This document shows, piece after piece, positions 38,014 to 62,224 of a DNA stretch of 64,000 nt. The translations under genes and the position numbers were made by a program. The first letter of the stretch is position 1. Every line of letters starts with the position of its first letter. Below the pieces are notes generated by a model. It made no database searches and had not been told where the DNA came from. It worked only from the letters and a program-made list of their open reading frames with translations. This stretch comes from Gaiellaceae bacterium (lineage in GTDB: Bacteria > Actinomycetota > Thermoleophilia > Gaiellales > Gaiellaceae), in assembly GCA_035293125.1 (NCBI GenBank), contig DATDOS010000158.1, positions 8,963 through 72,962 of the forward strand, in the 5' to 3' direction.

Positions 38014-38059
38014 CGGGAGCGACGGGACTCGAACCCGCGACCTCCGGCGTGACAGGCCG
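38014..38059 (-). repeat. tRNA-Asp(GTC) 3'-half fragment, copy 1 (att-like direct repeat)
   Basis: The reverse complement CGGCCTGTCACGCCGGAGGTCGCGGGTTCGAGTCCCGTCGCTCCCG covers the anticodon arm (loop CTGTCAC), variable loop, T-arm and 3' acceptor strand. There is no D-arm or 5' acceptor upstream. Confidence 0.85.
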
Positions 38060-38328
38060 AATCGGCTGCGACGAAGGGCGTGGACGCGCTGCTCGGAACA
38101 GGCGTATTTGCCGCGCCTTTTCGATGAGAAACCCTTCCCGTTCCGCATTGCTCCGTGGACGTCTTGCAGGCGTTTGGGCCACGAATGGGCCGGGGTGTTG
38201 TCAACCAAGCACAAGATTCGGCACCGGAGGGGCCATCTGGAAGATGAGGCTCAAGGCGTTGTCGACCGCCTCTCTACCACGCGCTCCGAGCGGCAACAGT
38301 TCCCGACGACTGCGCTGGAAACGGTCAG

Positions 38329-40740
38329 TCATGCGCTCCCCGCTCGGCTGCGAAGGGAGCTGTACTGCGGCCTGGAGAGGGACCTGTCCATCGAGCCAGG
38401 GGCGTACGCGCATGCGGGATCCTCGCCGAGCGCGTCTCCGGACGCCGCGAACGCTCGCGCGCGCGAGCCTCCGCAGAGGTCTGCGTATTCGCACTCGCCG
38501 CAGCGCCCGTGGAAGCGGGCCGCGCGGATGTCCCGGAGCAGCGGGTGGCTCCTGTAGATGTCGACGATGCTCTTCACCCTGACGTTCCCCAGCGGCAGGG
38601 GAAGGAAGCCGGCTGGGAAGACGTCCCCATTGTGGGCGACGAAGACAACGCCCTTGCCATCGCGGGTTCCGCCTGTCTGCGCCCGCGGCTCGGAGCTCGC
38701 CTCGCCAAGCTGCTCTCGCAGGCGTGCGGCGAGCACGTCGTACAGCGGTCCGAGACCGTACGTGCTCCTCGGGTCGGCGCCACTTTCGTCCTTGCTGCGC
38801 CAGGCGACGACGCGTCGGAAGAAGGGTGCCTCGACGGTCCGGACGACGAGTCCGTACGACGAGGCGTCGAACAGGAAGTGGCACACGTCCTCGCTCTCGT
38901 CCGGGGTGAGGTCCACGAGGTTTCGCCCCCTGCCCACGCGCACGAGGAAGAAGAGCTCCCAGACCGACGCCTCATGCTCTTTGACGAGCCTCGCGACGTC
39001 AGCCAGCTCGTGCGCGGTCTCACGCATGACGAGGGTGTTGACCTGTACGTTGAGGCCGCAGCTCCGGGCGAGACGAAGCGCATCGAGCGTCGCCTGGAAG
39101 TGCCCCTCTGCTTGTCTGACCCGCTCGTGCGTCTCGGCGCTGCCGCCGTCGAGACTGATGGAGACGGTCGTGACGCCCCGCTCCCGCAACGCTGTCAGCG
39201 CCTCCGCCGTGAGCGACGGCGTGACTGCCGGCGCGACCGCGATACGGAGGCCGAGCGCCGAGGCATGGCCCACGAGCTCCGGGAGATCGGGCCGCTGCAG
39301 CGGGTCGCCGCCGGTGAAGATGGTGATGGGCCGGGGCTCACCAAACGAGGCCACAGCCTCGAGCAGGGAGCGCGCCTCGTCGTGGCCGAGCTCACCCGGG
39401 AGCGGGCTCGGGATCGCCGCCGCCCGGCAATGGCGGCAGGAGAGGGTGCATGCCCTCGTGGCCTCCCAGAAGACGAGACGCGGATGCGCGTCGAAATCAA
39501 GGTGTGCCGGGGCCGGGGTACGAGCCGACGGCCGGCGGAACGGGAGCCTTCGGCCTACGCTTGCCAGCGTCGCGGTCAGCTCGTCGACCGTGATCTCCGT
39601 GAGCCCACGGCGGCGCGCGGCCTGCTCGACGGCCAGCCTCACGCGGTCTCGGACGAAGGGCGGGATTCGCTCCACCCGCTCGTCTGCCTCCCGCGTCCAG
39701 CGGAGCCGCGGATCCCCCACCTCGGCGGCGCGGCCGAGGGGCCGGTAGGCGCACCACGGGTCCTCGCCGGAGAGGTCTCCGGAGAGGGCGAAGGATCGCG
39801 CGCGGCAGCCGCCGCAGAGCTCGCGGAACTCGCACGTCCCGCAGTGGCCGGTCGGTGTCTCGTCGCGGAGACGGCTCAGGATCGGTGCGTGCTGCCAGAT
39901 CTCCTTGAAAGGGCGCTCGCGGATCGAGCCCGCCTCGAGCGGCAGGTACGGGCACGGGGTTACCTTGCCGTCCGCGGTGATCCGGCAGTACTGTCTCCCG
40001 GCGAGGCAGCCCGCGGAGGCGACGAGCGCCGAACCTCGCCGGGAGGCGATACGGGCGATCTGGGGCGCGCAGCGCGCACGAATCATCAGCCGCGGGTGGC
40101 GCGCCTGCGCGTCGGTCAGTGCTCCGAGCGCCCGCTCGTACTGCGCGGGCGAGATGTCGCTCAGCGTCTCGGCCCGTCCGGTGCAGACGAGGAAGTAGAG
40201 CGTGAAGCCTGCGGCCGACTCTGCCTCTGCGAACCTGATCAGCGCCTCGACCTCGCCGTAGTTCCAGGACAGGGCTGTCGTCTGCACGATCACCGGCACG
40301 TCCTCGGCGACGCAGGCGCGGATGCCGCGAACGGCGCGGCGCCAGGCACCCCGGGCGCCGCGAAAGCGGTCGTGCTTTTCCGGGTCGATCGAGTCGAGGC
40401 TGATCGCTGCCCCCGCCAGACCGAGCTCCTTCAGGCGGCGGGCCCGGGTGCGCGTCAGCAGCAGCCCGTTCGTGCCGAGAACGGGGAGGAGGCCGCGACC
40501 GGCGGCGTGGTCGACGAGCTCGTCGAGGTCGGGACGCAAGAGCGGCTCCCCGCCAGAGAGGATGAGCATCTGTGTCCCAAGGCCGGCCAGCTCGTCGATC
40601 AGCCGCCGTCCCTCGTCGAGCGTGAGCTCCCCGCTCGCCGCCCGCCCGGCGGCGAGGTAGCAATGGCCACAGCGAAGGTTGCAGCGCTGAGTCGTGTTCC
40701 ACGACACGATCTCGGGGTGCCACGTGCGCTCGCTCGTCAT
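38329..40740 (-). CDS. Fused twin radical SAM/SPASM enzyme (AhbC/AhbD/NirJ-like) with a BchB-C-terminal-like linker
   Basis: ATG 40740 (ATGA overlap with the upstream gene), 803 aa. Domain 1 has WNTTQRCNLRCGHCY plus the SPASM motif CGTCEFRELCGGCRARSF. The linker is LRWTREADERVERIPPFVRDRV. Domain 2 has PRLVFWEATRACTLSCRHCRA plus CGECEYADLCGGSRARAF. Confidence 0.85.
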   Translation of the reverse strand: MTSERTWHPEIVSWNTTQRCNLRCGHCYLAAGRAASGELTLDEGRRLIDELAGLGTQMLILSGGEPLLRPDLDELVDHAAGRGLLPVLGTNGLLLTRTRARRLKELGLAGAAISLDSIDPEKHDRFRGARGAWRRAVRGIRACVAEDVPVIVQTTALSWNYGEVEALIRFAEAESAAGFTLYFLVCTGRAETLSDISPAQYERALGALTDAQARHPRLMIRARCAPQIARIASRRGSALVASAGCLAGRQYCRITADGKVTPCPYLPLEAGSIRERPFKEIWQHAPILSRLRDETPTGHCGTCEFRELCGGCRARSFALSGDLSGEDPWCAYRPLGRAAEVGDPRLRWTREADERVERIPPFVRDRVRLAVEQAARRRGLTEITVDELTATLASVGRRLPFRRPSARTPAPAHLDFDAHPRLVFWEATRACTLSCRHCRAAAIPSPLPGELGHDEARSLLEAVASFGEPRPITIFTGGDPLQRPDLPELVGHASALGLRIAVAPAVTPSLTAEALTALRERGVTTVSISLDGGSAETHERVRQAEGHFQATLDALRLARSCGLNVQVNTLVMRETAHELADVARLVKEHEASVWELFFLVRVGRGRNLVDLTPDESEDVCHFLFDASSYGLVVRTVEAPFFRRVVAWRSKDESGADPRSTYGLGPLYDVLAARLREQLGEASSEPRAQTGGTRDGKGVVFVAHNGDVFPAGFLPLPLGNVRVKSIVDIYRSHPLLRDIRAARFHGRCGECEYADLCGGSRARAFAASGDALGEDPACAYAPGSMDRSLSRPQYSSLRSRAGSA

Positions 40741-42101
40741 GGTCGGTGGAAGCGTCCCGTCTCCGCCCAGTGGCGCCGGGCCTGATCGACGAGATCCGGC
40801 GTGACCTCGGACGTGCCTCGCTCCCGGGCGTACGCCTCGAGCGCGTTGACGATCATGCCGCGAACGAACTCTGGGATGCGGGCGATCCGTCGTGACGCCT
40901 CGTCCGTCCATGTGAGCTCGCTCGTTGCTCTCGCCGAGCCCTCGGCCCATTGCCGGTACTTCTTGTCGAGCACTTCGGCCGTCACCGACGGCAGGCCGAG
41001 ACGGCGGGCGAGCACCTCGACGCGCTGCCTTGTCAGCTCGCGCAACGGCCCCGCCGGTACCTGCTCGAGTTGCGCCTCCGCATCGGGCGCCCAGGACAGC
41101 CGGTCTTCGAGCGGGAGAACCTCGCCGGTGACGACGAGGACGCTACAGGTCGCAAGCCGGGCGATGTTCTCAGCCGTGCTGCCGAGGTCGGCGTGCTCGG
41201 TGCGGTGGCGGCCGAAGCGCCCGGCGACGAGGAGCGCCGGCCTCCGCTCGTCGGCGTGGTCGAGGATCCGCTGGAACGGCTTGCCCTCGAGGAGGGTCGT
41301 CTCGACTCGCTGACCGGCCGTCTCCGCCATGCGTGCAGCCGTCTCCAGGTAGCCGCCGTAGAGCTTCTCGAGGCCGCCGTCGATGATCTGCTCGTGGAGC
41401 TTGCGCTGCTCGTCGAAGCGGAAGCGCTGAGCCTGCTCCTCCGCTAGGACGCCGGAGATGCTCTTGAAGGCGGCGACGTGGAACTGCGGGTCGAAGACGC
41501 TGACGATCTCGACAGGTTCGTCCAGGGCTCGGCCCAGCCGGAGTGCGGAGTCGACCGCCTTCGTGGCTGCGGCGCTGCCGTCGGTGAGGGCGAACACGCC
41601 GCGGCTACCGGGCGGGCGCTTCCGAACGAGGAGAACGTCGATCGGCGCGCGGCGCAGGACCCGCTCGCTCACGCTTCCGATCAGGCTTCGCCGCCTCGCC
41701 CCGAGCCCGAGCGCGCCGAGCGCGACGAGGTCGCAGCCGTCCCGGGCGATCTCCTCGAGGATCTTCACGTAGTTCGTCCCCTCGGCGAGGCGGCGCTCGA
41801 AGGTGACCTTTAGGCGGCAGAGCTTCTCGGCGTGATCGAGGTACGACTCGGAGATGATGCGCAGGCCGTCGGAGATGAGCGTCCCGTGCACGGCGCGCGA
41901 GCCGCTCAGCTTCTCGGGGCTGGAGTAGGGGGCCGGCAGGGCGGGCTCCATCTGGCGGAACCGCGTCTCGTGGAGCCGCGCCGCATAGGCGTGGAAGGCG
42001 ACGACCGTCCCGTCGGCACGCCCCGCGAGCGCCGCCGCTTGCAGTACCGCCTCGTCGCTGTGTTGCGAGTTATCGACCGGGACGAGGATGCGCGCGTACA
42101 T
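40737..42101 (-). CDS. Tandem universal stress protein domains plus two BchB-C-terminal-like (PCP_red-like) repeats
   Basis: 454 aa with MYARILVPVDNS...GSVSERVLRRAPIDVLLV and a second USP unit. The C-terminal repeats are LSWAPDAEAQLEQVP... and LTWTDEASRRIARIPEFVRGMIVN. Confidence 0.8.
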   Translation of the reverse strand: MYARILVPVDNSQHSDEAVLQAAALAGRADGTVVAFHAYAARLHETRFRQMEPALPAPYSSPEKLSGSRAVHGTLISDGLRIISESYLDHAEKLCRLKVTFERRLAEGTNYVKILEEIARDGCDLVALGALGLGARRRSLIGSVSERVLRRAPIDVLLVRKRPPGSRGVFALTDGSAAATKAVDSALRLGRALDEPVEIVSVFDPQFHVAAFKSISGVLAEEQAQRFRFDEQRKLHEQIIDGGLEKLYGGYLETAARMAETAGQRVETTLLEGKPFQRILDHADERRPALLVAGRFGRHRTEHADLGSTAENIARLATCSVLVVTGEVLPLEDRLSWAPDAEAQLEQVPAGPLRELTRQRVEVLARRLGLPSVTAEVLDKKYRQWAEGSARATSELTWTDEASRRIARIPEFVRGMIVNALEAYARERGTSEVTPDLVDQARRHWAETGRFHRP

Positions 42102-42102
42102 G

Positions 42103-42474
42103 TCAGACGGGGGAGTCGTGGCGCCGCCAGGCGCGCGTCCGGCTCCACATCGACGGGTAGAGGGCGCGCATGGCCGGGGTCTGGAGGTAGAGGACGATCG
42201 CGACGTCGACTGCCAGAGGAAGTGGATGGCCGAGGTGGACGGAGCGGACTGCGTCGAACGTGGCGAAGACGTAGCCGGCCATACGCGCTCTCGGACTGCG
42301 GCGCGAGAGGGTGTACGCCGCCCAGGGCGCCGCGACGCAGTAAGCGAGCACGCCGGTCGATCCGTGCCCGTAGTTGAGTCCCGGGAGGGATCCCGTGACG
42401 ATCGCCCACACCTCGAGCGCCGGCGCGACGCTCAACAGAAGGACGAGAGGGAGGGCCGGCCGGAGCGGGCTCAT
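42103..42474 (-). CDS. Small hypothetical membrane protein (123 aa)
   Basis: ATG 42474 (ATGA overlap) inside track ORF 42103..42759. It has 3-4 hydrophobic helices and ends 2 nt before the USP gene start. Confidence 0.55.
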   Translation of the reverse strand: MSPLRPALPLVLLLSVAPALEVWAIVTGSLPGLNYGHGSTGVLAYCVAAPWAAYTLSRRSPRARMAGYVFATFDAVRSVHLGHPLPLAVDVAIVLYLQTPAMRALYPSMWSRTRAWRRHDSPV

Positions 42475-42875
42475 GGTGTCCTCCGAGTGGCCGCCTTGCC
42501 GCCGATCATGCTGCCGACGAAGCTCGTGACGAGGATGAGGAGGGGCCAGACGAAGAAGAAGGTCGAATCGCCCGTGGCGAGTCCGGGAAGCGGGTCGGGC
42601 AGGGCCTCCGCCAACTCGGCTCCGAAGAGGACGCCGGCGACGATTCCGAAGTAAAGCGTGCCGAGGACGGCGCCGTAGAGCGGCTCCGGCTCGCGTGCGT
42701 ACCAGCCGAGGAGAAAGCCCGCAGCGAGCAGCGAGGGCACGCTCGCCAGCGCGAGCCACCAGACATTGTCCGTCAAGAGCAACGGCGCGGCTCCGAGGGC
42801 GACCGTGCCGGCTGCGCTCGCGCCCAGCGCGAGGAGGAACACAGGTGTGCGGGGTGGTCTGTGGTGCCGCGACAT
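42471..42875 (-). CDS. Small hypothetical membrane protein (134 aa)
   Basis: ATG 42875, 4 nt after the cytochrome c stop. About 4 hydrophobic helices (VFLLALGASAAGTVALGAAPLLL...). Confidence 0.6.
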   Translation of the reverse strand: MSRHHRPPRTPVFLLALGASAAGTVALGAAPLLLTDNVWWLALASVPSLLAAGFLLGWYAREPEPLYGAVLGTLYFGIVAGVLFGAELAEALPDPLPGLATGDSTFFFVWPLLILVTSFVGSMIGGKAATRRTP

Positions 42876-42879
42876 GGCC

Positions 42880-43575
42880 CTAGTCCCCGACCTCGCCGTC
42901 CTCGACCTCATCGGTAGGTCTCCCCGTCAGCGTCGTCAGGTAGGCGACGAGATCCTCGAGCTGTTCCGCGGAGACGAGCGCTTTGTAGCGAGGCATGATC
43001 GGCGCGTACTTCGGGATCTTGAAGTCGTACGCCGATCCGGCCTTCAGCTTCTCGAACAGGTAGTCACGCGCTGTCAATCCGGGCACGCGGCCGCCGGCCC
43101 TCGACGCGACTTGCGTTAGGTCGGGGCCGCGGATGCCCCCCTGGCCCGCGATGGAGTGGCAGCGGAAACACCCGACCGTGGGGTTGCTGAAGAGCTCCCG
43201 CCCGCGGTCGGCGGCTTGCTCCTTCTGCGCGGGAGCCTTCTCCGCCTTCGGCGGGGAGAACTGTGGGTAGACGACGCCAACGGCGACGAGCAACCCGACC
43301 GTGACGAGGTAGACGGCTGCCACGCTCCCCACTACTGAAGCCGGGCGTTCCGGCGTGCGGATCCGCTCCCTGCCGAGAAACCAGAAGAACAGGCCGGCGA
43401 GGAGAGCCATGACCGTGAAGAACACCCGGTAGACCCAGCCGAACTGGAGTCCCGTCTCCTCCGGGACGAAAGGCAGACCGACCCAGATCGCCACGAGCAC
43501 GACGAGCAGCACCGCGCCCTTGCTTCGGATCAGGCGACGCAGCGACGGGGCTTTCTGCTGTGGCGCGACGGCCAC
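42880..43575 (-). CDS. Membrane-anchored monohaem cytochrome c
   Basis: 231 aa with three N-terminal hydrophobic helices and then CFRCH (CxxCH). GTG start 2 nt after the CydA-like stop. Confidence 0.8.
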   Translation of the reverse strand: MAVAPQQKAPSLRRLIRSKGAVLLVVLVAIWVGLPFVPEETGLQFGWVYRVFFTVMALLAGLFFWFLGRERIRTPERPASVVGSVAAVYLVTVGLLVAVGVVYPQFSPPKAEKAPAQKEQAADRGRELFSNPTVGCFRCHSIAGQGGIRGPDLTQVASRAGGRVPGLTARDYLFEKLKAGSAYDFKIPKYAPIMPRYKALVSAEQLEDLVAYLTTLTGRPTDEVEDGEVGD

Positions 43576-43577
43576 TT

Positions 43578-44996
43578 CTACGCCTCCTGCTCCGGTTTAC
43601 CAAGCTTGAATCCGATCCAAAATATGAATGCCATGAACGTGAAGAAAATCATCGTGATGATTCCGACCATGATGCTCGTGTGGCCGAGCGGGGTCGTGTA
43701 CCACTGCGGCGTCGTATCGCGGAGGACGCGATACACATGCCAGTCCTGGCGGGACAGCTCGCGGATCGCCCCCATCAACCCCATCAGGTAGACGACGACA
43801 GCGGGCACGAAGACGAGCGCATACTGGGCCTGAGGCGCGATCTCTCCCCAGCGGACGGCCCCGAGGGCCATCGCTCGGCGGTAGACCATGTACGTGACGA
43901 AGGTGAGGAGGATGATCGCCGTGACGGCCAGGGCTTTCGCCATCATCAGCCCCAGAAAGCCCGCCCGCTCGGGCAGCACGATGTCCTCGAGCGCGACACC
44001 AGGCGTCTGCGTCGTCAAGTCCGGATAGAAGTTCTGCGGGATGATCCAGACGATGCCGCCCGCGACGATCACGCCGAAGATCGGGCGCATGTAACCGGAA
44101 AAGCGCTCCGCTCCGTCGATGCGGCGGATACTCATCCACATGTAGTAGTTGACACCGAGGAAGAGGAGGCTGACGAGCAGCCCCTGCATGACGAAGAAGC
44201 TCGAAAGCTTGTCCGCCATCTGAAACGTGGCGATGTTCGCGTCGTAGAGGAAAATCTCCTTCGCGTAGATGTAGCCGGCAAGCGGCAACAGGATGAGCGT
44301 GGCGACGCCGATGAAGTTGCCGATGAACCCCATCCAGTCGTAGAAGGCGCGGTCCTCCCGGCTCTTCGCCGTCAGGAACATGAAGGCAGCGAAGAGCGCG
44401 ATCATGAACCCGCCGAAGGTGATGTTCGCGATGAAGCGGTGCAGGTTGAGCCCGCTGAACGTGTCGTTGTTGACGAGCGCCCAGACGCTCGCCGTCGCCG
44501 CGTTCTCCGGCGGCGTCAGCATGTAGGAGCCGACCGCATTCATCATCACCATCGTCGCGGTGCCGGTGACGTTGAGGGCCACGCCGATGGAGAGATGCAG
44601 CCTCTTCCGGTCGGCGAGGGGCTCCCACGAGTACCAGTAGACGTACATGAGCGCTGTCTCGACGAAGAAGAGCCCGCCGTAGATCGCGAAGACCGGCCCC
44701 ATCCGGTCGAGCAGATGGGTTGCGACCTCGTGGTAGGGGCCCATCAGCACGAACGCGAACGCGGCCCCCGAGAGCGCCGTGAAGCTGTAGGCGATCGCCA
44801 CCACTTTCATCGCTTCCCTCGCCAGCCGCTCGTAGCGCTGGTCCCTACGCCGGTGCCCCAGCCACTCGCAGACGACGATGAAGATCGGCGCGCCAAGGAC
44901 GAAGGCGGCAAAGAGGAGGTGGATCTGCGCGACGAGCCAGACCAGCGACCGGGCGTCGATCGCCGCGAGTGGGAGAAGGACCGAGCCCGCCTCCAC
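43578..44996 (-). CDS. Cytochrome bd subunit I (CydA)-superfamily membrane haem protein; no CydB partner present
   Basis: 472 aa. VWLVAQIHLLFAAFVLG (N-terminal His), MMNAVGSYMLTP and LHRFIANITFGGFMIA resemble CydA. It abuts the cupredoxin stop with a 0-nt gap. Confidence 0.8.
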   Translation of the reverse strand: MEAGSVLLPLAAIDARSLVWLVAQIHLLFAAFVLGAPIFIVVCEWLGHRRRDQRYERLAREAMKVVAIAYSFTALSGAAFAFVLMGPYHEVATHLLDRMGPVFAIYGGLFFVETALMYVYWYSWEPLADRKRLHLSIGVALNVTGTATMVMMNAVGSYMLTPPENAATASVWALVNNDTFSGLNLHRFIANITFGGFMIALFAAFMFLTAKSREDRAFYDWMGFIGNFIGVATLILLPLAGYIYAKEIFLYDANIATFQMADKLSSFFVMQGLLVSLLFLGVNYYMWMSIRRIDGAERFSGYMRPIFGVIVAGGIVWIIPQNFYPDLTTQTPGVALEDIVLPERAGFLGLMMAKALAVTAIILLTFVTYMVYRRAMALGAVRWGEIAPQAQYALVFVPAVVVYLMGLMGAIRELSRQDWHVYRVLRDTTPQWYTTPLGHTSIMVGIITMIFFTFMAFIFWIGFKLGKPEQEA

Positions 44997-54891: not shown

Positions 54892-56493
54892 TCAAGGTCG
54901 GATCGACCAGGTGAAGCGCGTCAGGGCGGCCGGAGGAGCGAGGCCGCCGGGGCGCAGACCCCGCCGCACGAGCAGCGTTGGTGGGGCGGCGTCTCTGGCG
55001 AGTCTGAGGCGAGCCGGGCCGAGGCCCTCGTGGTGCCACCTCGTCGACAGCCCGACGACGAGCAGTCCCGCGTAGCGGCTCGCCTCCAGCATGCCCTCCT
55101 CGCCGGGCGAGATCAGCAGCGGCTCGGCCGAGATGCCCAGGACGCGCTGAACTGCGAGCGCGCCGTGCGAGAGCAGGCGGCTCGCATCGCGCTTGCCTCG
55201 CTCCGGCACCGCTGCGACACCCGCGAGCCGGAGCGGCGCGCCACTTGCCCGCGCGAACCATGCGCCGAGCTCGACGGCCGCCCAGTCGTGGTCGGCTCCT
55301 CCGAACGGGACGAGCACCGGGCCTTGGGAGGTCGCCTCCCGGGGAACGAGCAGCGCGACGTCGCATGGCGCCTCCTCGAGGAGGGCGGTGAGCTGCTCGT
55401 CGGGAGCGCCCTCGGCCAGAAGCTCCTCGGGAGCGTCGGTAAGCAGGAAATCGACGTCGAGCTCGGTGGCGAACCGAGCCAGCTCCGCACCCGGCGCCGT
55501 CGACGTGAACGAGGCAGCACGAGCCACGACACCGCGCGCTTCGAGTGCGGACCGGCGCTCTTCGAGCCAGGCTGACGTGGGCCGGAGCTCGGCTGCGTCC
55601 GACAGGACCCTGGTCAGGATCATGACGCGAGGCGGATGTCGCACGAGCGGCTCGGCCACCGTGAGCAGCGCGTCGATGCGCGTCTCCTGGGCGATGGCAA
55701 CGAGAATCGACCGCTCCGCGACCTCCCGGACACCTGCAGTTGCCGTCGCTTCGCCATCCAGCGACGGGTCCTGTCGAAGGATCGCGCGCTCCAGCTCCTG
55801 GAGCGCCGGACTCGGATCGATCCCGAGCCCGTCGACGAGCGCGCGGCGCGCGTCCTGGTACGCCTCCAGGGCTTCCGCCTGCCGGCCCGACCGGTACAGC
55901 GCGGTCATCAGATACCCCCGCAGGCGCTCGCGGAGCGGGTGCTCCGCGACGAGTGCCTCGAGCTCTCCGACCAGCTCATCGTGGCGTGCGAGCGCGAGAT
56001 CGGCGTCGATCCGGAGCTCGACTGCTGCCAGCCTGATTTCCTCGAGCCGGGCGATGGCGGCCTGGGCGAAGCTTTCGTAGGCGAAGTCCGCGAGCGCCGG
56101 GCCTCTCCACAGCGACAGCGCGTCGCGGAGCCGCCCCGACGCGTCCGCTGCCAGGCTGCGAGCCAGCAGCCCCCTCCCTTCGTCCACCAGGCGCTCGAAG
56201 CGGTGGAGGTCGAGCTCGTCGGGCTCGACGCGGACGACATAGCCCGGGGATCTGGTCGTCAGTACGTCTGCGGGAAGCGCCTTGCGAAGTCGCGAGACGT
56301 TGACCCGCAGCGCGGCGGCGGCGCCCTCGGGCGAGTCCTCACCCCAGAGCTCGTCGATCAGCCGGTCAGCAGGAACGACCTCGTTGAGGTGAAGGAGGAA
56401 CAGGGCGAGAAGCGCACGCGGCTTGGGCCCACCCAGTGACACCTCGTGGTCCCCGTCCCACACCTCGAGCGGGCCCAGGATCCGGAACTCCAT
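54892..56493 (-). CDS. SARP-family transcriptional activator (OmpR-type wHTH + BTAD) with C-terminal USP-like tandem domain
   Basis: ATG 56493, 5 nt after GGAGG. MEFRILGPLEVWDGDHEVSLGGPKPRALLALFLL..., BTAD LDLHRFERLV...ALSLWRGPALADF...RLAAVELRIDADLALARHDELVGELEALV, then alpha/beta USP-like repeats. Confidence 0.88.
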   Translation of the reverse strand: MEFRILGPLEVWDGDHEVSLGGPKPRALLALFLLHLNEVVPADRLIDELWGEDSPEGAAAALRVNVSRLRKALPADVLTTRSPGYVVRVEPDELDLHRFERLVDEGRGLLARSLAADASGRLRDALSLWRGPALADFAYESFAQAAIARLEEIRLAAVELRIDADLALARHDELVGELEALVAEHPLRERLRGYLMTALYRSGRQAEALEAYQDARRALVDGLGIDPSPALQELERAILRQDPSLDGEATATAGVREVAERSILVAIAQETRIDALLTVAEPLVRHPPRVMILTRVLSDAAELRPTSAWLEERRSALEARGVVARAASFTSTAPGAELARFATELDVDFLLTDAPEELLAEGAPDEQLTALLEEAPCDVALLVPREATSQGPVLVPFGGADHDWAAVELGAWFARASGAPLRLAGVAAVPERGKRDASRLLSHGALAVQRVLGISAEPLLISPGEEGMLEASRYAGLLVVGLSTRWHHEGLGPARLRLARDAAPPTLLVRRGLRPGGLAPPAALTRFTWSIRP

Positions 56494-56524
56494 CTCGCCT
56501 CCTGGCGCGAACGCTAACACCGAC

Positions 56525-56568
56525 TGTTGCGCGCCTGAAACGGGGCTGAAACGAGTCAGGGGGAGGAT
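56525..56568 (+). promoter_or_regulatory. Candidate SARP-dependent promoter (b): TGTTGCGC-N3-TGAAACGG-N3-TGAAACGA-8 nt-GAGGAT
   Basis: Repeats at 56525/56536/56547. It lies in the divergent gap between the SARP gene and secreted paralog 1. Confidence 0.6.
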
Positions 56569-56605
56569 CGGGCTTCACAAACGGGTCTCCAGAAAGGAGC
56601 GACCG

Positions 56606-57040
56606 ATGAAGACTCACTACGTCGTGCTCGTCGCGCTCATTGCGGCAGTCACGCTGGCCTCCGTGGCGGCGGCAACACCCGGCGCCGTCAAGCAGCGGGT
56701 CGCGATCGCGTCAAAGCTGTACCCGGAGCGCACATTCGTATTCACCCCGGTCACAGCCGGACCGCTCAAGCGCGACTCCGGCACCGTAGGTTTCGATGCC
56801 GGTACCTTCACGTTCAAGGGAAAGCGGGGCACTCTCACGATTCGCGAGTTGTACGAAAACTGGGTGAACTGCGGGAGCGAGGAACACAAGGGCGTCATTC
56901 CTGCGGTCGACATCGGCCCCTGGAAGGTCGTGCGCGGGACTGGCCAGTACAAGGGCGTCACCGGAGGCGGGGAGAGTGCGCAAGCGGGGCTCGGCAACCC
57001 GTGGTACGCGCGCCAAGAGGGGTACCTCGCGTCTCCGTAG
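56606..57040 (+). CDS. Small secreted protein, paralog 1 (144 aa)
   Basis: AAAGGAG RBS and signal peptide MKTHYVVLVALIAAVTLASVAAA. Shared family motifs KGKRGTLTIRE and WKVVRGTGQYKGVTGGG...GYL. Confidence 0.75.
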   Translation: MKTHYVVLVALIAAVTLASVAAATPGAVKQRVAIASKLYPERTFVFTPVTAGPLKRDSGTVGFDAGTFTFKGKRGTLTIRELYENWVNCGSEEHKGVIPAVDIGPWKVVRGTGQYKGVTGGGESAQAGLGNPWYARQEGYLASP

Positions 57041-57053
57041 CGCGTACTCCAAC

Positions 57054-57088
57054 GAGACGGGCGGGCGCTCCGGTGCGCCGCCCGTCTC
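57054..57088 (+). terminator. GC-rich hairpin after paralog 1
   Basis: GAGACGGGCGGGCGC-TCCG-GTGCGCCGCCCGTCTC. Confidence 0.6.
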
Positions 57089-57108
57089 GGCCCACGGCCG
57101 CCGTCACC

Positions 57109-57152
57109 TGTTGCGCGACTGAAACGGATCTGAAACGGGCCGGCTCGATAGT
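57109..57152 (+). promoter_or_regulatory. Candidate SARP-dependent promoter (c): TGTTGCGC-N3-TGAAACGG-N3-TGAAACGG-8 nt-GATAGT
   Basis: Repeats at 57109/57120/57131, 37 nt upstream of ATG 57189. Confidence 0.6.
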
Positions 57153-57188
57153 GGGGTTCGAGCAAAGAGCAGAACGCGAGGAAAGGAG

Positions 57189-58253
57189 ATGGGGACGATG
57201 CCCAGGAATCGAGTTCAACGCCTCGGCGCGATCGGCCTCATCTCGGCAGTCGGGCTCGTAGCGACAGCCGGTGCCGCATCGGCACCGGCCACGGGGTCTC
57301 AGCTCGCTGCGAACTCTGCGCGAGCGAGCTCGCAGATCGCCTTCATCAGCGAGCCTCCGGCCGGCGGCTACTGCGGCCTTGTCTACGTCATGAACGCCGA
57401 CGGGAGCAGGCGGCACAGGCTGGCCGATGGCCCGGCGGATGAGTGCGCGCAGGAGTGGGGTCCAGCCTGGGCGCCCGACGGGCGGACGATCGCCTTCGTC
57501 GGCAATTCCAAGATCTACGTCACGAACGCCAACGGGAGCGGGCAGCGGCGGCTGACGCACACCGCTGCCTCGGAAGGTTCTCCGGCCTGGTCGCCCGACG
57601 GGCGGAGGATCGCCTTCACGAGATACCGCCAGAGCACTGGCGAGATCTACATCGTGAACGCCGACGGCACTGGGCAGCGGAGGCTGACACGCAACGGGGC
57701 GGGCAACTTCGCTCCGGTCTGGGGATACTTCGCTCCGGTCTGGTCGCCCGACGGGCAGAGGATCGCCTTCGTCAGCCGACGTGACGGCAACTTGGAGGTC
57801 TACGTCATGAACGCCGACGGGAGCAGGGAGCGGAGGCTGACACACAACGCTGTGCGCGACGAATACCCACTCTGGTCGCCCGACGGGCGAAGGATCGCCT
57901 ACGTCAACAATTTGCGACAGGTCTACGTCATGAACGCCGATGGCAGCGGGCAGCGGAGCCTGACAGGCAACGCTGCGCGCAGCGTCGCTCCTGCCTGGTC
58001 TCCCGACGGACAGAGGATCGCCTTCGTCAACGACGGCGTCAACGTCATCAACGCCGACGGGAGCGGGCAGCGGAGGCTGTCGCAAGACGGCGCGCAACCT
58101 TCCTGGTCGCCCGATGGCCAGAAGATCGCGTTCGCGAAGAACTCCGACATCTACGTCATGAACGCCGACGGAAGCGGACAGCGGAACTTGACGCGCAGCA
58201 ACCGTCGCGAAAGCTCGCCTCTCTGGTCGCCCGGACGGAGCAGCGCAGGATGA
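57189..58253 (+). CDS. Secreted PD40/TolB-like beta-propeller repeat protein
   Basis: 354 aa with a signal peptide. Seven or more repeats of the form IYVMNADGSGQRRLT...P.WSPDG.RIAF. Confidence 0.85.
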   Translation: MGTMPRNRVQRLGAIGLISAVGLVATAGAASAPATGSQLAANSARASSQIAFISEPPAGGYCGLVYVMNADGSRRHRLADGPADECAQEWGPAWAPDGRTIAFVGNSKIYVTNANGSGQRRLTHTAASEGSPAWSPDGRRIAFTRYRQSTGEIYIVNADGTGQRRLTRNGAGNFAPVWGYFAPVWSPDGQRIAFVSRRDGNLEVYVMNADGSRERRLTHNAVRDEYPLWSPDGRRIAYVNNLRQVYVMNADGSGQRSLTGNAARSVAPAWSPDGQRIAFVNDGVNVINADGSGQRRLSQDGAQPSWSPDGQKIAFAKNSDIYVMNADGSGQRNLTRSNRRESSPLWSPGRSSAG

Positions 58254-59191
58254 GCACGCCGAGGAAGATCGGCGTGCTCGCCGTGGCAGCGGCGATCAGC
58301 CTTGCGGCGCTGGCCGTCGTCCTGATGGCACGCCCCGAAACTGCGACAACTCGAGGTGCGAACGCTCCGCTCGAGCCGAGAACCGCGGTGACGAAGCCCG
58401 GCGCGCCGAAGTTCGACTACGTGTTCGACCTGAACACCGGCGTCAAGACACCGCTGCCCAGCGCCATCATCCGATCGGCGGCCAAGCTGGGGCAGTATGC
58501 GGCCTCACCCGACGGATCCCTGCTCGCCTACGTCGGGGACGACAACGACGGAACCCCTCAGATCTTCGTTGCACGCGTCGACGGCAGCGGGATCCGACAG
58601 TTGACCCACGATCCGGTGCGTGCCGCGTCGCCCGCTTGGTCGCCGGATGGGACCAAGATCGCGTACGGGGGATTCGGGAGTCTCTTCGTGCTCGATGTCG
58701 CCACGGGCGAATCCACACCGACTGCTGGCGCAGGCGGACCCTGGGCTCAGCCCCAGTTCACGCCGGACGGCTCGTCACTCCTGTACACCGACCCTGGCCC
58801 GTCTGACTATGGCTCGGTACTCCGGACCGTCCCGATCGAAGGCGGGAAGAGCACGGTCCTGATCGGCCCGGACGAGGGAATGGGCCACGCGGGGAACGGC
58901 TCGCTGTCACCTGACGGCTCGCTCGTGACCATGATGGGCAACGAGATCAACGGTCCCGGGGCGATCCGCTTTGTCGCCAACGTCGACGGCACGGAGCTGC
59001 GATCCATCCCCGAAGGCAGCTCGAATCCGGCGGGGACATGGTCTCCCGACGGAGACCGGATCGTCTGCTCGGACTACGCACGGAGGAACATCCTCGTCGT
59101 CGACATCGCGACGGGCAGCGCTTCGCGCGTCGCCAAAGGCCGTGCGGCGATCTGGCTGGGTGCGCACGCGTTGCTCGTCGACGTCGCCTGA
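58250..59191 (+). CDS. Membrane-anchored PD40-like beta-propeller protein
   Basis: 313 aa, ATGA overlap with the upstream gene. N-terminal TM IGVLAVAAAISLAALAVVLM and repeats SPDGSLLAY and WSPDGTKIAY. Confidence 0.8.
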   Translation: MSTPRKIGVLAVAAAISLAALAVVLMARPETATTRGANAPLEPRTAVTKPGAPKFDYVFDLNTGVKTPLPSAIIRSAAKLGQYAASPDGSLLAYVGDDNDGTPQIFVARVDGSGIRQLTHDPVRAASPAWSPDGTKIAYGGFGSLFVLDVATGESTPTAGAGGPWAQPQFTPDGSSLLYTDPGPSDYGSVLRTVPIEGGKSTVLIGPDEGMGHAGNGSLSPDGSLVTMMGNEINGPGAIRFVANVDGTELRSIPEGSSNPAGTWSPDGDRIVCSDYARRNILVVDIATGSASRVAKGRAAIWLGAHALLVDVA

Positions 59192-59237
59192 GGATCGCGT
59201 CGAGCGCTCCCGTCGGGGCAGAACGGACGCCGTCAGC

Positions 59238-59281
59238 TGTAGCTCGACTGAAACGGACCTGAAACGGCTCGGGTCGATCAT
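59238..59281 (+). promoter_or_regulatory. Candidate SARP-dependent promoter (d): TGTAGCTC-N3-TGAAACGG-N3-TGAAACGG-8 nt-GATCAT
   Basis: Repeats at 59238/59249/59260, 37 nt upstream of ATG 59318. Confidence 0.6.
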
Positions 59282-59317
59282 CCGCTTCCGACAGATGACC
59301 ATCGAGAGGAGGCACCG

Positions 59318-59764
59318 ATGAACGTCCGATACACCGTGCTCGTCGCCGTCGCGGCGGCGGTCGCACTGGCGTCTGTCGCCACTGCGGCACCCGACGCCGG
59401 CAGACAGCAGATCACGATCATGTCGCGGCTGTATCCGGGTGGGACATTCGTGTTCACACCGCTGGTACCCGGAGCGCTGAAGCGTGACTCCGGCAAGGTC
59501 GGCGTCGAGGACTCCGGCTACGACACCAGCGACTTCACGTTCAGGGGGAAGCGCGGCACCCTCACGCTTCGCGAGCAGACCGAGTGGGTGGACATCTGGA
59601 ACGAGGAAGTGAACGGCGTCACTCCAGGGGTGTCCATCGGCCCATGGAAGGTCGTGCGGGGGACCGGCCAGTACGCCAAGGTCACCGGAAGCGGCCGGAG
59701 TGTCCAGGTCGGGCTCGGCAACATCTGGTACGCGCGCCACGAGGGGTACCTCAAGGTCCCGTAG
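59318..59764 (+). CDS. Small secreted protein, paralog 2 (148 aa)
   Basis: GAGGAGG RBS and signal peptide. Motifs RGKRGTLTLRE and WKVVRGTGQYAKVTGSG...GYL. Confidence 0.75.
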   Translation: MNVRYTVLVAVAAAVALASVATAAPDAGRQQITIMSRLYPGGTFVFTPLVPGALKRDSGKVGVEDSGYDTSDFTFRGKRGTLTLREQTEWVDIWNEEVNGVTPGVSIGPWKVVRGTGQYAKVTGSGRSVQVGLGNIWYARHEGYLKVP

Positions 59765-59817
59765 CGCCCTGCGACGCGACGGGCGGCGCGCACTCGTGTG
59801 CCGCTCGTCTCCGCACT

Positions 59818-59861
59818 TGTTGCGCAGGTGAAACGGACCTGAAACGGGCCGGGTCGACCAT
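59818..59861 (+). promoter_or_regulatory. Candidate SARP-dependent promoter (e): TGTTGCGC-N3-TGAAACGG-N3-TGAAACGG-8 nt-GACCAT
   Basis: Repeats at 59818/59829/59840, 40 nt upstream of ATG 59901. Confidence 0.6.
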
Positions 59862-59900
59862 CGAATTCGACAGTCGAGTCTCCCGACCAGGAGGTACCCC

Positions 59901-60371
59901 ATGAAAGCTCGATATGCCGTGCTCGTCGCGATCGTCGCGGCGGTCACGCTCACGTCCGTTGCGGCGGCCGGCCCTGACGCGGCGAAGCAGCGCGTGGCGA
60001 TCGTGATGAATGACTTGCCCGACGGCAAGTTCTTGCTCAGCCCATTCCAGCTCGGAGCGGTCAAGAGCGACTCGGGCAGGACCAGCGTCGCCCTGAGCGG
60101 CCCGAACGTCGTGATGCGCGAGGGGCAGACGATCGAGGTCTGGCGCAATACCTGGACGCTCACGGGAAAGCGGGGGAGCCTCACGATTCGAGAGCGCGTC
60201 GAGTGGATCGACGCCGGGCAGCCCTTTATCGGCACCGGCACCTGGAAGCTCGTGCGGGGAACGGGCCAGTACGCCGGGATCGCGGGTAGCGGGCGGAGTG
60301 CCTCTGCGGGGCTCAATCGTGCGAATGGGGCCTGGTTCGTGCGCTACGAAGGCTTCCTCATCCTGCCGTAG
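59901..60371 (+). CDS. Small secreted protein, paralog 3 (156 aa)
   Basis: CAGGAGG RBS and signal peptide. Motifs TGKRGSLTIRE and WKLVRGTGQYAGIAGSG...GFL. Confidence 0.75.
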   Translation: MKARYAVLVAIVAAVTLTSVAAAGPDAAKQRVAIVMNDLPDGKFLLSPFQLGAVKSDSGRTSVALSGPNVVMREGQTIEVWRNTWTLTGKRGSLTIRERVEWIDAGQPFIGTGTWKLVRGTGQYAGIAGSGRSASAGLNRANGAWFVRYEGFLILP

Positions 60372-60386
60372 CGCACTGCCCGAGAC

Positions 60387-60414
60387 GGGCGGCGCGTCCC
60401 CGGGCGCGCCGCCC
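60387..60414 (+). terminator. GC-rich hairpin after paralog 3
   Basis: GGGCGGCGCG ... CGCGCCGCCC, a perfect 10-bp stem. Confidence 0.55.
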
Positions 60415-60496
60415 ACCACCGGTGGAGTTGACGGGGTAAGGGGACGCGCGTCAGCGTCGAGGGATCTATCCACGTCCCCTCCGAAAGGAGCGACGC

Positions 60497-61405
60497 ATGA
60501 AGCACCAATCGAAGGTCGGAGTCTCCGCCGCAGTCGTGCTCGTCGCGCTGCTGGCCACGACGGTCGCATCTGCGATGAACTTCTCGCCCTGGGCGCCCGC
60601 ACAGGCCGTGGCCGAACTGAACACTGCGTCGAGTGACGGCTGCCCGATCCAGTCACCCGACGGTCTGAGCTTCTACCTGGCCTCGAACCGCACGGGCACA
60701 CTCGGCGGTCTCGACATCTGGGTCGCGACACGGGAGGACGCCGACGATCCTTGGTCGACGCCCGTGAATCTCGGGGCGCCGATCAACTCGGCGGCTGACG
60801 ACTTCTGCCCGACGCCAATCCGCGGGGGCGGTCTCTTCTTCGCGAGCAGGCGGGAGCCCGCAAGCTGTGGCACGAATGACAGCGACCTCTACTTCACCCG
60901 CCTCAACCCGGCCCACGGGTGGAGCGAGCCGCTGCACCTCGCGTGCGCGGTCGATGGAGGCCCGAACAGCACCCTCGACGAGATGGGCCCCTCGTACGTG
61001 GAAGTCGATGGACGGGGGCTCCTCTTCTTCTCGAGCGGCCCCGACATCTACATGAGCGAGCGGGGTTCGGGCTGGAGCTTCGGCCCGGCGCAAGCCGTCA
61101 CGGAGCTCAACAGCGCGTCGAGCGACATTCAGCCGAACGTCCGCAAGGACGGGCGCGAGGTCGTCTTCGCCTCGAACCGCGTGGACACGCTGGGCGGCCA
61201 GGACATCTGGATCGCTACACGGGAGGACGCCGACGATCCGTTCTCGACGCCCGTGAACCTCGGCTCGGCTGTCAACACCACGGCCAACAATGAGACACGC
61301 CCCTCGTTCTCCCGGGACGCCAAGATGCTCTACTTCGGTCGCGCGCCGACCGCCGGAGGACCGGGCGACATCTACATGACGACGCGGGAGAAGCTCGCAG
61401 GCTGA
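60497..61405 (+). CDS. Secreted PD40/TolB-like repeat protein
   Basis: 302 aa with AAAGGAG RBS and a signal peptide. The repeated module ELN(T/S)ASSD..P..S.DG...(F/Y).ASNR...LGG.DIW(V/I)ATREDADDP(W/F)STPVNLG occurs twice. Confidence 0.8.
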   Translation: MKHQSKVGVSAAVVLVALLATTVASAMNFSPWAPAQAVAELNTASSDGCPIQSPDGLSFYLASNRTGTLGGLDIWVATREDADDPWSTPVNLGAPINSAADDFCPTPIRGGGLFFASRREPASCGTNDSDLYFTRLNPAHGWSEPLHLACAVDGGPNSTLDEMGPSYVEVDGRGLLFFSSGPDIYMSERGSGWSFGPAQAVTELNSASSDIQPNVRKDGREVVFASNRVDTLGGQDIWIATREDADDPFSTPVNLGSAVNTTANNETRPSFSRDAKMLYFGRAPTAGGPGDIYMTTREKLAG

Positions 61406-61427
61406 TCCAGCTGTCAGGCGAGATCGA

Positions 61428-61457
61428 GGCGAGGGCCCGCGAACCCGGGCCCTCGCC
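61428..61457 (+). terminator. Strong GC hairpin after the PD40 gene
   Basis: GGCGAGGGCCCG-CGAACC-CGGGCCCTCGCC, a perfect 12-bp stem. Confidence 0.7.
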
Positions 61458-61658
61458 GAGTCTCACAGCGCTTCACCGTCCACCTCGCGGGCCCGGGGTG
61501 GTGCCGCGCCCGAGTGCGAATTGGGGTCAGGTCTCGAGTGTTGCGTGATGGGCGTGCAACGAGAGGGACCTGACCCCGTTGCGGATGCCGTGATTGAGCG
61601 GGCCACGGATGACGGGGTACTGTCCAGACCCCATCGCCTGGTCCTCGAGGAGGAGATC

Positions 61659-62141
61659 ATGAGCGTCCCACGTGAGGGTGGCTGCGCCTGCGGAGCGGTT
61701 CGCTATCGGCTTACGTCCGATCCGCTCTTCACGCATTGCTGTCACTGCCTGAACTGCCAGCGCCAGACCGGAAGCGCCTTCGTTATCAACCTGCTGATCG
61801 AGACCGACCGCGTGGAGCTGCTCGCTGGCGACCCCCAGCCGGTCGACGTGCCTCGCGACGACGGCAGCAAACAGACGATCTTCCGCTGTCCGACCTGCCA
61901 GGTCGCGGTCTTCAGCCAGTACGGACGCCCTGAGCTGCGGTTCGTTCGCGGCGGTACGCTCGACGACCCATCGGGAGTCACTCCAGACGTTCATATCTTC
62001 ACCAGGTCCAAGCTCCCCTGGATCACGCTGCCGGAGTCGGTGCCGGCGTTCGAGGTCTACTACGACATGAAAGCCTTGTGGCCGGCCGCGAGTCTCGAGC
62101 GGCTCGAGGCGATCATGGCGCCGGCCGGCTCGGACGACTGA
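61659..62141 (+). CDS. GFA/CENP-V family zinc protein
   Basis: ATG 61659 after GGAGGAG. Motifs GGCACGAVRY...HCCHCLNCQRQTGSAF...FRCPTCQ typical of the GFA domain. Confidence 0.85.
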   Translation: MSVPREGGCACGAVRYRLTSDPLFTHCCHCLNCQRQTGSAFVINLLIETDRVELLAGDPQPVDVPRDDGSKQTIFRCPTCQVAVFSQYGRPELRFVRGGTLDDPSGVTPDVHIFTRSKLPWITLPESVPAFEVYYDMKALWPAASLERLEAIMAPAGSDD

Positions 62142-62180
62142 GGCCGACAAGAAACGGGCCTCGTTGCAGCGGCTACGAGA

Positions 62181-62224
62181 CGGGAGCGACGGGACTCGAA
62201 CCCGCGACCTCCGGCGTGACAGGC
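62181..62224 (-). repeat. tRNA-Asp(GTC) 3'-half fragment, copy 3
   Basis: Same core CGGGAGCGACGGGACTCGAACCCGCGACCTCCGGCGTGACAGGC. The 5' strand of the anticodon stem is not preserved, and there is no 5' half. Confidence 0.85.

Follow-up and report, generated by a model that had tools for sequence, protein, structure and literature searches.

Among actinobacteria, pSAM2 and mycobacteriophage L5 are well-known elements that target the 3′ half of a tRNA gene (tRNA-Pro and tRNA-Gly, respectively); both use tyrosine integrases and an att core of about 40–60 bp that covers the tRNA between its anticodon loop and 3′ end, and in both the integrase gene adjoins the att site and points towards it. Islands in tRNA genes (tDNAs) with anticodon-centred ('A') attP sites fall under the Islander/TIGER definition, and in the Islander survey arrays of three or more were rare, at 4 of 3919 (Hudson, Lau & Williams, 2015; PMC4383910). 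Island arrays at ssrA have been described in Dehalococcoides, where 15 islands lacking an integration module were proposed to be cis-mobilizable elements (McMurdie et al., 2011; PMC3146451). CIMEs and the accretion of ICE/IME-derived islands have likewise been described (Pavlovic 2004; Bellanger 2011; Zhang & Loria 2017 for Streptomyces; reviewed in PMC5704250).

Here we analyse a window of 64,000 nucleotides (the whole stretch of DNA under study) from an uncultured member of the Gaiellaceae (Thermoleophilia), a soil actinobacterium, in which part of tRNA-Asp(GTC) occurs three times. We suggest that these repeats are very probably displaced 3′ fragments of the tRNA gene, that is, attR-type scars of repeated integration, and that they delimit tandem islands devoid of integrases. 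The process is known, textbook biology, and the array is a new instance of it.

The tRNA-Asp fragments and the intact gene

An exact 43-mer is present three times on the plus strand of the window (38015–38057, 49960–50002 and 62182–62224), as compared with no match in 100 shuffles of the sequence. Read on the opposite strand, it corresponds to tRNA-Asp from the anticodon loop (CTGTCAC, anticodon GTC) through the variable loop and T arm to the 3′ acceptor strand with the discriminator base, and the first-pass annotation was correct in describing three co-oriented copies of the 3′ part of this tRNA, from the anticodon arm to the 3′ end, at spacings of 11945 and 12222 bp. With their limits set by identity to the intact tRNA-Asp gene found beyond the window (Table 1), the copies match that gene perfectly over 44–47 nt. 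Copy 1, which we read as an attR-type site, extends from about position 29 in the anticodon stem to the discriminator, and to the left of copy 3 a further 6 nt (CGAGAC) are common to the trailer of the intact gene. All three copies are intergenic and terminal, reaching the discriminator base, and none overlaps a conserved CDS. ARAGORN detected no complete tRNA in the 64-kb window, as had been stated from the sequence at the outset; no other tRNA-Asp remnants were detectable there, and a SAM riboswitch was the sole match in an Rfam scan.

The region past the window was read from near-identical metagenome contigs (e.g. L002), and an intact tRNA-Asp(GTC), predicted beforehand to lie on this side, was found on the minus strand at window-equivalent 64194–64267 (L002 8279–8352), 194 bp past the window end. 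The three fragments are on its strand and downstream of it in the tRNA sense, giving the order molybdoenzyme flank, copy 1, block C, copy 2, block B, copy 3, island A, tRNA-Asp and a conserved CvpA gene. The proposed stacking of islands to the left of the tRNA gene is thereby supported, although copy 3 and the tRNA gene enclose a further, innermost island of 2 kb (island A) that had been overlooked; the integrase that was to be looked for next to the tRNA gene is absent from the source genome, where the 7 kb to the right of tRNA-Asp is conserved core.

At the outer end, the boundary had been placed at 38014, after the molybdoenzyme operon (genes for a Mo-oxidoreductase, 4Fe-4S, NrfD, a chaperone and FlpD/Fer4). 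Supporting this placement, a related contig (L112) has 91.9% nucleotide identity over exactly 30890–38021, its homology stopping 8 nt into copy 1. In that contig, the molybdoenzyme block is itself bordered on either side by unrelated sequence.

The array junctions were recovered at 99.6–99.9% identity in independent assemblies of four samples, three from ENA (ERZ27254795, ERZ27254861 and ERZ27254865) and one from JGI (3300002124), and one 35-kb contig (ERZ27254861:k141_1414014) covers the array from the molybdoenzyme operon to past tRNA-Asp, so that misassembly is excluded. The junction at copy 1 is also present in L109–L111.

Table 1. Features of the tRNA-Asp array, in window coordinates.
Feature	Position	Strand	Remarks
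Molybdoenzyme operon block	30890–38013	+	Flank left of outermost scar
Copy 1	38014–38059	-	Outermost scar; 46 nt identical to 3′ part of tRNA-Asp(GTC)
Block C	38060–49958		11.9 kb; respiratory cargo
Response regulator (block C)	46380–47075	-	
Histidine kinase (block C)	47075–49633	-	
Copy 2	49959–50005	-	47 nt identical to the tRNA, including entire 5′ strand of anticodon stem
Block B	50006–62180		12.2 kb; regulatory and beta-propeller cargo
Beta flank	50006–50160		Right of copy 2; read as P arm of attP
STAND Ser/Thr kinase-WD40 (block B)	50385–54884	+	
SARP regulator (block B)	54892–56520	-	
GFA (block B)	61548–62141	+	
Copy 3	62181–62224	-	44 nt identical to the tRNA
Island A	62225–64000, on to window-equivalent 64193		Innermost; ~2 kb; no integrase
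Alpha flank	62225–62350		Right of copy 3; read as P arm
Secreted-protein ORF (island A)	62473–63351	-	292 aa

A conserved integration hotspot at tRNA-Asp

Comparison with relatives identifies the tRNA-Asp beside the CvpA-protease gene as a hotspot of integration that is conserved in uncultured Gaiellaceae and Thermoleophilia. At 46 loci, this one included (~45 relatives), tRNA-Asp lies 60–140 bp upstream of a conserved CvpA/trypsin (protease) gene; the right (tRNA 5′) side of the relatives' loci is syntenic and the left (3′) side is hypervariable, consisting mostly of singleton gene families. Sixteen further partial tRNA-Asp copies were found in 15 relatives, and all 19 copies, counting the three here, are co-oriented on the 3′ side within roughly 26 kb of tRNA-Asp, with one limit always at the tRNA 3′ end and the other always within the 5′ strand of the anticodon stem. 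The 5′ side and the other strand have no partial copies in about 1.4 Mb of relatives' loci. Of the relatives, L005 (JAOUHF01) is the closest.

At the homologous position, tyrosine integrases (PF00589) converge on the tRNA-Asp 3′ end in at least 14 relatives: L032, L074 and L017 have full-length versions, and another 11 loci have fragments. An IMG/VR sequence (L094) has a complete 9.7-kb phage-like element at tRNA-Asp, in the order tRNA-Asp, integrase, DUF3631, Prim-Pol, TerL, protease-capsid, portal and partial copy, and its att identity block of 48 nt has the same boundaries as the copies in the window; phage gene families of this type were found in L094 and L032. Along with the intact tRNA, these converging integrases and the att core of L094 support the initial interpretation of the repeats as att scars of site-specific integration. 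Of the 24 core-bearing IMG/VR contigs, most represent ordinary tRNA-Asp genes or tRNA arrays of phages, and none matches the flanks of copies 1–3.

The GFA gene is close to tRNA-Asp in five relatives, as it is to the left of copy 3 here, and its nucleotide identity is 80–85% versus 70–72% and 76–80% for neighbouring core genes. Were GFA part of the ancestral flank and not cargo, simple accretion at the tRNA gene would not account for the presence of copies 1 and 2 on its left. Homologues of window genes at 6.6–8.4 kb sit to the left of CvpA in Solirubrobacterales loci; these genes were considered as the ancestral left neighbour of the hotspot and dropped because their order and orientation differ.

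Cargo, missing integrases and conserved flanks

The islands are 11.9, 12.2 and 2.0 kb long, lengths within the 2–200 kb of Islander, and have GC contents of 0.66–0.69 versus 0.711 for the core part of the window. The lower GC reported from the first look to the right of each copy is present (0.62–0.65 versus 0.696 for the window) but is ordinary for intergenic DNA. Besides its two-component genes, block C encodes a double radical-SAM/SPASM protein, Usp/PCP_red, cytochrome c, a cytochrome-bd-I-like protein and cupredoxins, a module that is kept as a unit elsewhere with differing flanks and has a counterpart (P0072) at 90% amino acid identity. Block B further contains PD40 beta-propeller proteins and three small paralogues. 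Apart from its secreted-protein ORF, island A holds frameshifted ORF remnants, and Pfam gave no match for these pieces or for its 382-aa ORF. Look-ups of exact proteins had no match for the ATG-start form of GFA, the 873-aa radical-SAM ORF, the 1499-aa STAND kinase and P0071, owing to start-codon choice or strain variants.

The cargo had been described as free of integrase, excisionase and transfer genes, and this is borne out both by Pfam, which detected none of the three (PF00589 for the integrase) in the ORFs of 38–64 kb, and by tblastn with three integrases from relatives, which returned only noise (E = 8–10) from the window and L002. Genes of the L094-type prophage or satellite (integrase, Prim-Pol/DUF3631, terminase, portal, capsid) have no Pfam match in the window, no functional element is adjacent to the array in the source genome, and none of the blocks, taken singly, was matched by an empty site. 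Every block keeps intact att cores at both ends, which together with the lack of int and tra genes is the configuration of a CIME, and island A also has conserved arms on both sides. An integron was considered and rejected, as there is no IntI, the repeats are pieces of a tRNA rather than attC hairpins, and the blocks are multi-gene with their own regulators. Weighing against the origin by integration are the lack of an integrase or remnant in the window and the 7 kb beyond it, the lack of mobile-element hallmark genes in blocks B and C, a copy 1 flank that matches nothing else, and two relatives of block C (L283, L282) in which no scar stands beside the module.

To the right of copies 2 and 3, homology to scar flanks of other genomes begins with the very next base beyond the core, which is what P arms would show. 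L015 and L020 have partial copies whose flanks are 76–77% identical to the beta flank, the L015 copy belonging to an element with a fragment of an L032-type integrase, and the alpha flank is 76–86% identical to flanks in L033, L013, L022 and L008. A tandem motif, ACTTGCCAA, is found in the alpha flank at 62328–62336 and 62339–62347 (2 matches in 64 kb versus 0.03 expected), and a second pair is located 73–93 nt from the 3′ end of the intact tRNA-Asp in the same orientation, so that both ends of island A have one; we read these pairs as putative arm-type sites. A scan of IMG/VR and metagenomes for ACTTGCCAA(N2-3)ACTTGCCA gave mostly chance matches, and among the matches listed only L201, L208 and L228 also have the tRNA core. 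For blocks B and C, the k-mers common to the putative P and P′ ends are single 9–10-mers (CGGCTACGA, GCTGCTCGGA), not clearly above chance.

Such arms raise the possibility that the islands are still mobile, as integrase-less, att-flanked, CIME-like cassettes that would be excised and moved by an integrase encoded elsewhere or incoming, with island A as one member of the cassette family. This seems unlikely to us. It would fit the undiminished identity of all three scars to the tRNA and the proposal that integrase-less islands of tandem arrays elsewhere are CIMEs (PMC3146451; PMC5704250), but neither an excised circle nor an empty site nor a cognate integrase is seen in the assembled sequence, and the frameshifted ORFs of island A suggest decay. 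Alpha arms with paired motifs are present at both ends of islands of 1.9–4.8 kb in at least four genomes, with unrelated cargo and no integrase among the matches listed, and the alpha P arm is 82–86% identical between this genome and L033 though the L033 CvpA protein is only 49% identical; this conservation could instead reflect an unsampled alpha element that bears an integrase. A more specific proposal, to which we give still less credence, is that there is an alpha family of integrase-less att-flanked cassettes of 2–5 kb at the Gaiellales/Thermoleophilia tRNA-Asp hotspot, with the paired motif in conserved P/P′ arms and freely exchangeable cargo, moved by a trans-acting tyrosine integrase between lineages diverged to family level. 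If that were true, the hotspot would capture genes in the manner of an integron anchored at a tRNA, and the larger blocks B and C might date from earlier captures.

Origin of the array and comparison with known systems

It is most improbable that the 44-mer is a dispersed tRNA-derived repeat (MITE- or SINE-like) spreading independently of integration at tRNA-Asp: units of about 170–200 bp, comprising the core and a conserved flank, do recur in several genomes, but the partial copies are confined to one side and one strand of tRNA-Asp as described above, and terminal inverted repeats and target duplications are absent. Relics of a tandem tRNA-Asp gene array with deleted 5′ halves can be set aside almost entirely, for although tandem tRNA-Asp genes exist in some sequences (L093), the 12-kb spacers here are packed with protein genes, the truncation point in the anticodon stem is the same in all copies and all genomes, and the flanks at that point group into conserved families.

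As to how repeated integration may have built the array, we envisage that elements with tyrosine integrases recombined their attP, in which the tRNA sequence between the anticodon stem and the 3′ end is duplicated, with tRNA-Asp at or near the anticodon loop. Every integration would restore the tRNA from the element's copy and displace the earlier 3′ half outward, and repeated integrations, into the tRNA gene or an existing scar, would pile islands on its 3′ side. Blocks B and C would have entered in this order of events as integrative elements and later lost their integrases and mobility genes, leaving cellular-type cargo between intact att cores. About 26 kb of the window would then be accessory DNA gained at one tRNA gene, including a cytochrome-bd-like/cupredoxin respiratory module with a two-component system and a STAND-kinase/SARP regulatory module. 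In MAGs of this little-known soil lineage, the copies offer precise landmarks for telling accessory genes from core genes, and the 44–48-nt attB, the candidate integrases (L032, L074, L017, L094) and the candidate arm-site motif are possible integration tools.

Compared with pSAM2 and L5, the array differs in its Thermoleophilia host, its tRNA-Asp target and a window without int, xis, rep or tra genes. It resembles the tDNA islands of Islander in having an intact tRNA gene with co-oriented displaced 3′ fragments on its 3′ side and islands in between, and their 'A' sites in an identity block that spans the tRNA between the anticodon stem and the 3′ end, and tandem arrays are known there as well; Islander, however, requires an integrase in every island, and no island here has one. 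As in CIMEs, integration and transfer genes are absent, attL and attR are kept, and stacking would be by integration into a resident att site; unlike CIMEs, the array has no adjacent ICE or IME, and the only intact relative found (L094) is phage-like. The Dehalococcoides islands use a tmRNA target, a 20 bp repeat and a serine integrase (DsiB), in contrast to tRNA-Asp, 44–48 nt and the tyrosine integrases of relatives here, but like this array they lie in tandem downstream of a single small-RNA gene, have direct repeats of that gene's 3′ end as their borders and a conserved flank next to the repeat, and carry cargo that is both respiratory and regulatory.

Partial tRNA-Asp copies and the intact gene

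The 43-nt core shared by the three partial copies of tRNA-Asp(GTC), numbered 1 to 3 from left to right, has exactly three occurrences in the whole window, as the first-pass annotation had claimed, all on the plus strand, and no match in 100 dinucleotide-preserving shuffles. Its reverse complement comprises the anticodon loop (CTGTCAC; GTC, Asp), variable loop, T arm, 3' acceptor strand and discriminator. Each copy is intergenic, and comparison of the window with the intact gene detected no further tRNA-Asp remnant. ARAGORN returned no tRNA from the window, consistent with the claim that none is intact there, and the sole Rfam match was a SAM riboswitch, which from its minus-strand position would control a gene to its left, extending to the vicinity of the window start or beyond it. 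The first 10 nt of the core, GGGAGCGACG, occur again 8 bp left of copy 1, with a counterpart, TGGAGCGACG, in L112 (a 224-kb contig from another sample); this could be chance or the vestige of an older scar.

An exact-protein look-up with the GFA-family gene immediately left of copy 3 yielded four metagenome contigs 99.6–99.9% identical to the window, three of which reach beyond its end. On these contigs lies the intact tRNA-Asp(GTC) that had been predicted to the right, 194 bp past base 64000 and holding a fourth copy of the core; the expected neighbouring tyrosine integrase was absent, no integrase being found within 7 kb to the right of the gene. The copy-1 junction is reproduced by contigs from three samples, and one 35-kb contig covers the whole array, the length between its two fetched parts equalling that in the window. 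These independent assemblies rule out misassembly as the source of the structure and its repeats.

Features of the array and its surroundings from left to right, in window coordinates or their equivalents beyond its end
Feature	Position	Strand	Description
SAM (S-box) riboswitch	823-925	-	62.7 bits, above gathering score
Molybdoenzyme operon	30890-38021		Five genes: Mo-oxidoreductase, 4Fe-4S, NrfD, chaperone, FlpD/Fer4
Second GGGAGCGACG	37997-38006		
Copy 1	38014-38059	-	Core start 38015; 46 nt identity block with intact tRNA-Asp
Block C (copies 1-2)	38.06-49.96 kb		Double radical-SAM/SPASM protein, Usp/PCP_red protein, cytochrome c, cytochrome-bd-I-like protein, cupredoxins, response regulator and histidine kinase
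Cytochrome-bd-subunit-I-like protein	43578-44996	-	In block C
Copy 2	49959-50005	-	Core start 49960; 47 nt identity block
Block B (copies 2-3)	50.0-62.2 kb		Ser/Thr-kinase-STAND-WD40 protein, SARP regulator, PD40 propeller proteins, GFA-family protein
Small paralogous proteins	56423-57040, 59318-59764, 59901-60371	+	205, 148, 156 aa; in block B
GFA-family gene	61548-62141	+	In block B
Copy 3	62181-62224	-	Core start 62182; 44 nt identity block
Island A (copy 3 to tRNA-Asp)			2.0 kb
First island A ORF with upstream extension	62473-63621	-	ORF of 292 aa, extended in frame
Second island A ORF	63615-63960		L002 (same-population contig) 7700-8045; starts MRVKLIDPRLHSAGWDEP
Intact tRNA-Asp(GTC)	64194-64267	-	74 nt
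Right side			CvpA/trypsin protease gene, MTHFR-type gene, further core genes

A tRNA-Asp hotspot in relatives

Scanning a genome collection with the CvpA protein placed the organism among the uncultured Gaiellaceae/Thermoleophilia bacteria and identified 80 loci, 46 of which (this one included) have tRNA-Asp upstream of the CvpA gene, at 60–140 bp and in the opposite orientation. Relatives share synteny on the 5' side of the tRNA (CvpA, MTHFR, dehydrogenase, peptidase, ABC transporter), and the 3' side consists almost entirely of singleton gene families that differ in each genome. Fifteen relatives carry 16 more partial copies of the core (0–3 mismatches), which, like the three in the window, lie on the 3' side and the same strand (19/19), with none found on the 5' side or the other strand of the relatives' loci. 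All partial copies have one end at the tRNA 3' end and the other inside the 5' strand of the anticodon stem. Recombination by a tyrosine integrase, centred on the anticodon loop, would give this constant, polar geometry, which is also that published for tDNA islands and their 'A' type attP sites (PMC4383910).

In relatives, Phage_integrase (PF00589) ORFs adjoin tRNA-Asp and are aimed at its 3' end. Three loci have full-length genes (L032, L074, L017) and 11 have fragments (L010, L026, L082, L023, L068, L038, L057, L030, L015, L020, L019), often just the C-terminal 50–100 residues abutting the tRNA, so that decayed integrases are the norm at this hotspot. A complete 9.7-kb integrated element occupies 144–9920 of the 10.1-kb IMG/VR contig IMGVR_UViG_3300047160_007881 (L094), in the order tRNA-Asp, integrase, DUF3631, Prim-Pol, large terminase, protease-capsid fusion, portal and partial tRNA copy. 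Its integrase is 69% identical to that of L032, and its attL/attR identity block of 48 nt has the same boundaries as the window copies. The element has no tail genes, and its size and content are like those of a capsid-forming phage satellite.

We consider it probable that decayed islands are arrayed here in tandem, having entered one after another by site-specific integration at tRNA-Asp or at existing scars and having later lost their integrases. The earlier reading of the copies as att scars, with islands stacked to the left of tRNA-Asp, is thus supported by the intact gene, the polarity, the hotspot and the integrases of relatives. The GFA gene bears on this model. It lies near tRNA-Asp in five relatives (L029, L028, L021, L020, L009), with a scar directly after it in the first two, and its nucleotide identity is 80–85%, versus 70–72% for CvpA and 76–80% for the MTHFR-type gene. 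The integration model holds if the gene travels with a widespread element, as cargo at the end nearest the integrase, whereas an ancestral flank would call for a further rearrangement to account for copies 1 and 2.

Scar flanks, cargo and outer boundary

An integration model assigns the sequence that adjoins a displaced fragment on its anticodon side to the attP of the element, as its P arm. The flank right of copy 3 (alpha type, 62225–62350) is 76–86% identical to DNA right of partial copies in L033, L013, L022 and L008, and that right of copy 2 (beta type, 50006–50160) is 76–77% identical to its counterpart in L015 and L020, an element of which L015 retains part of an L032-type integrase. 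The similarity always begins at the first base past the core and fades after about 120–160 nt; the flank of copy 1 had no match among the compared sequences. In L015 (78–158) ARAGORN takes a beta-type partial copy with its flank for a 'tRNA-Asp' of 81 nt, which shows that the beta flank can mimic a tRNA 5' half; it makes no such call on window copy 2.

Tandem pairs of ACTTGCCAA stand at both ends of island A, 104–123 nt right of copy 3 and, in the same orientation, 73–93 nt left of the intact tRNA-Asp. The copy-3 pair accounts for the only two matches in the 64-kb window (0.03 expected), and the motif recurs at the same two positions in L013, L033, L005, L049 and at least three metagenome contigs, in surrounding DNA that is not conserved. 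We interpret the pairs, on sequence grounds, as putative arm-type integrase binding sites. Neither island A ORF has a Pfam match; the first has an in-frame upstream extension with a signal/TM-like segment that lacks a start codon, the second shifts frame midway, and both look like decaying genes.

Blocks B and C contain no integrase, excisionase, replication or transfer genes, in keeping with the coherent, integrase-free cargo first described. Block C is kept as a unit beside different neighbours in other contigs, at identities of 90% (aa), 78% (nt) and 73% (nt), and the available stretches of these contigs contain no scar. This pattern suggests a transferable module but does not imply movement of the att-bounded unit itself. 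The cytochrome-bd-like protein of block C has no adjacent subunit II gene, its neighbours being cytochrome c and cupredoxins. Close relatives apart, it is most similar to homologues in Chloroflexi and Dehalococcoidia MAGs (about 73–74% aa), which hints at transfer between phyla. The small block B paralogues, without Pfam match and interleaved with PD40 beta-propeller proteins, have homologues among the fetched loci only in same-population contigs.

In L112 the molybdoenzyme operon is 91.9% identical at the nucleotide level (L112 4545–11673), and its flanks are unrelated to the window on both sides, indicating that this 7.1-kb block has a history separate from that of the histidine operon to its left. 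The right breakpoint falls 8 nt inside copy 1, L112 retaining just CGGGAGCG (8 nt) of the tRNA 3' end, which supports 38014 as a real junction and as the outer boundary proposed from the sequence. The GC contents (1–30.9 kb, 0.711; molybdoenzyme block, 0.673; block C, 0.685; block B, 0.688; island A, 0.66) agree with this picture.

Possible residual mobility and known systems

For the array as a whole, it is unlikely that the units have kept the capacity to be mobilised, whether in trans or in cis, in the manner of cis-mobilizable elements (CIMEs). Three observations speak for mobility: perfect conservation of the cores, 82–86% identity of the alpha arms to those of L033 even though the CvpA proteins are only 49% identical, and the lack of an integrase in all alpha islands among the matches listed (1.9–4.8 kb, unrelated cargo). 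Against it stand the frameshifted ORFs of island A and the failure to observe a circle, an empty site or a cognate integrase. The polarity of the copies argues against a dispersed tRNA-derived repeat, the copies in the relatives' loci being confined to one side and strand of tRNA-Asp, and the constant truncation point argues against decayed tandem tRNA genes.

The locus is a further instance of a known phenomenon, and its added interest is modest, residing in a hotspot conserved across the family and in alpha cassettes without integrase. It has the geometry of an Islander-type tDNA island array, from which it departs only in lacking an integrase, and it matches the descriptive definition of a CIME (PMC5704250), with putative mobilisation. 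The closest described analogue is the ssrA island array of Dehalococcoides (PMC3146451), whose islands likewise stand in tandem with respiratory cargo and in many cases have no integration module, but differ in having a tmRNA target and a serine recombinase.
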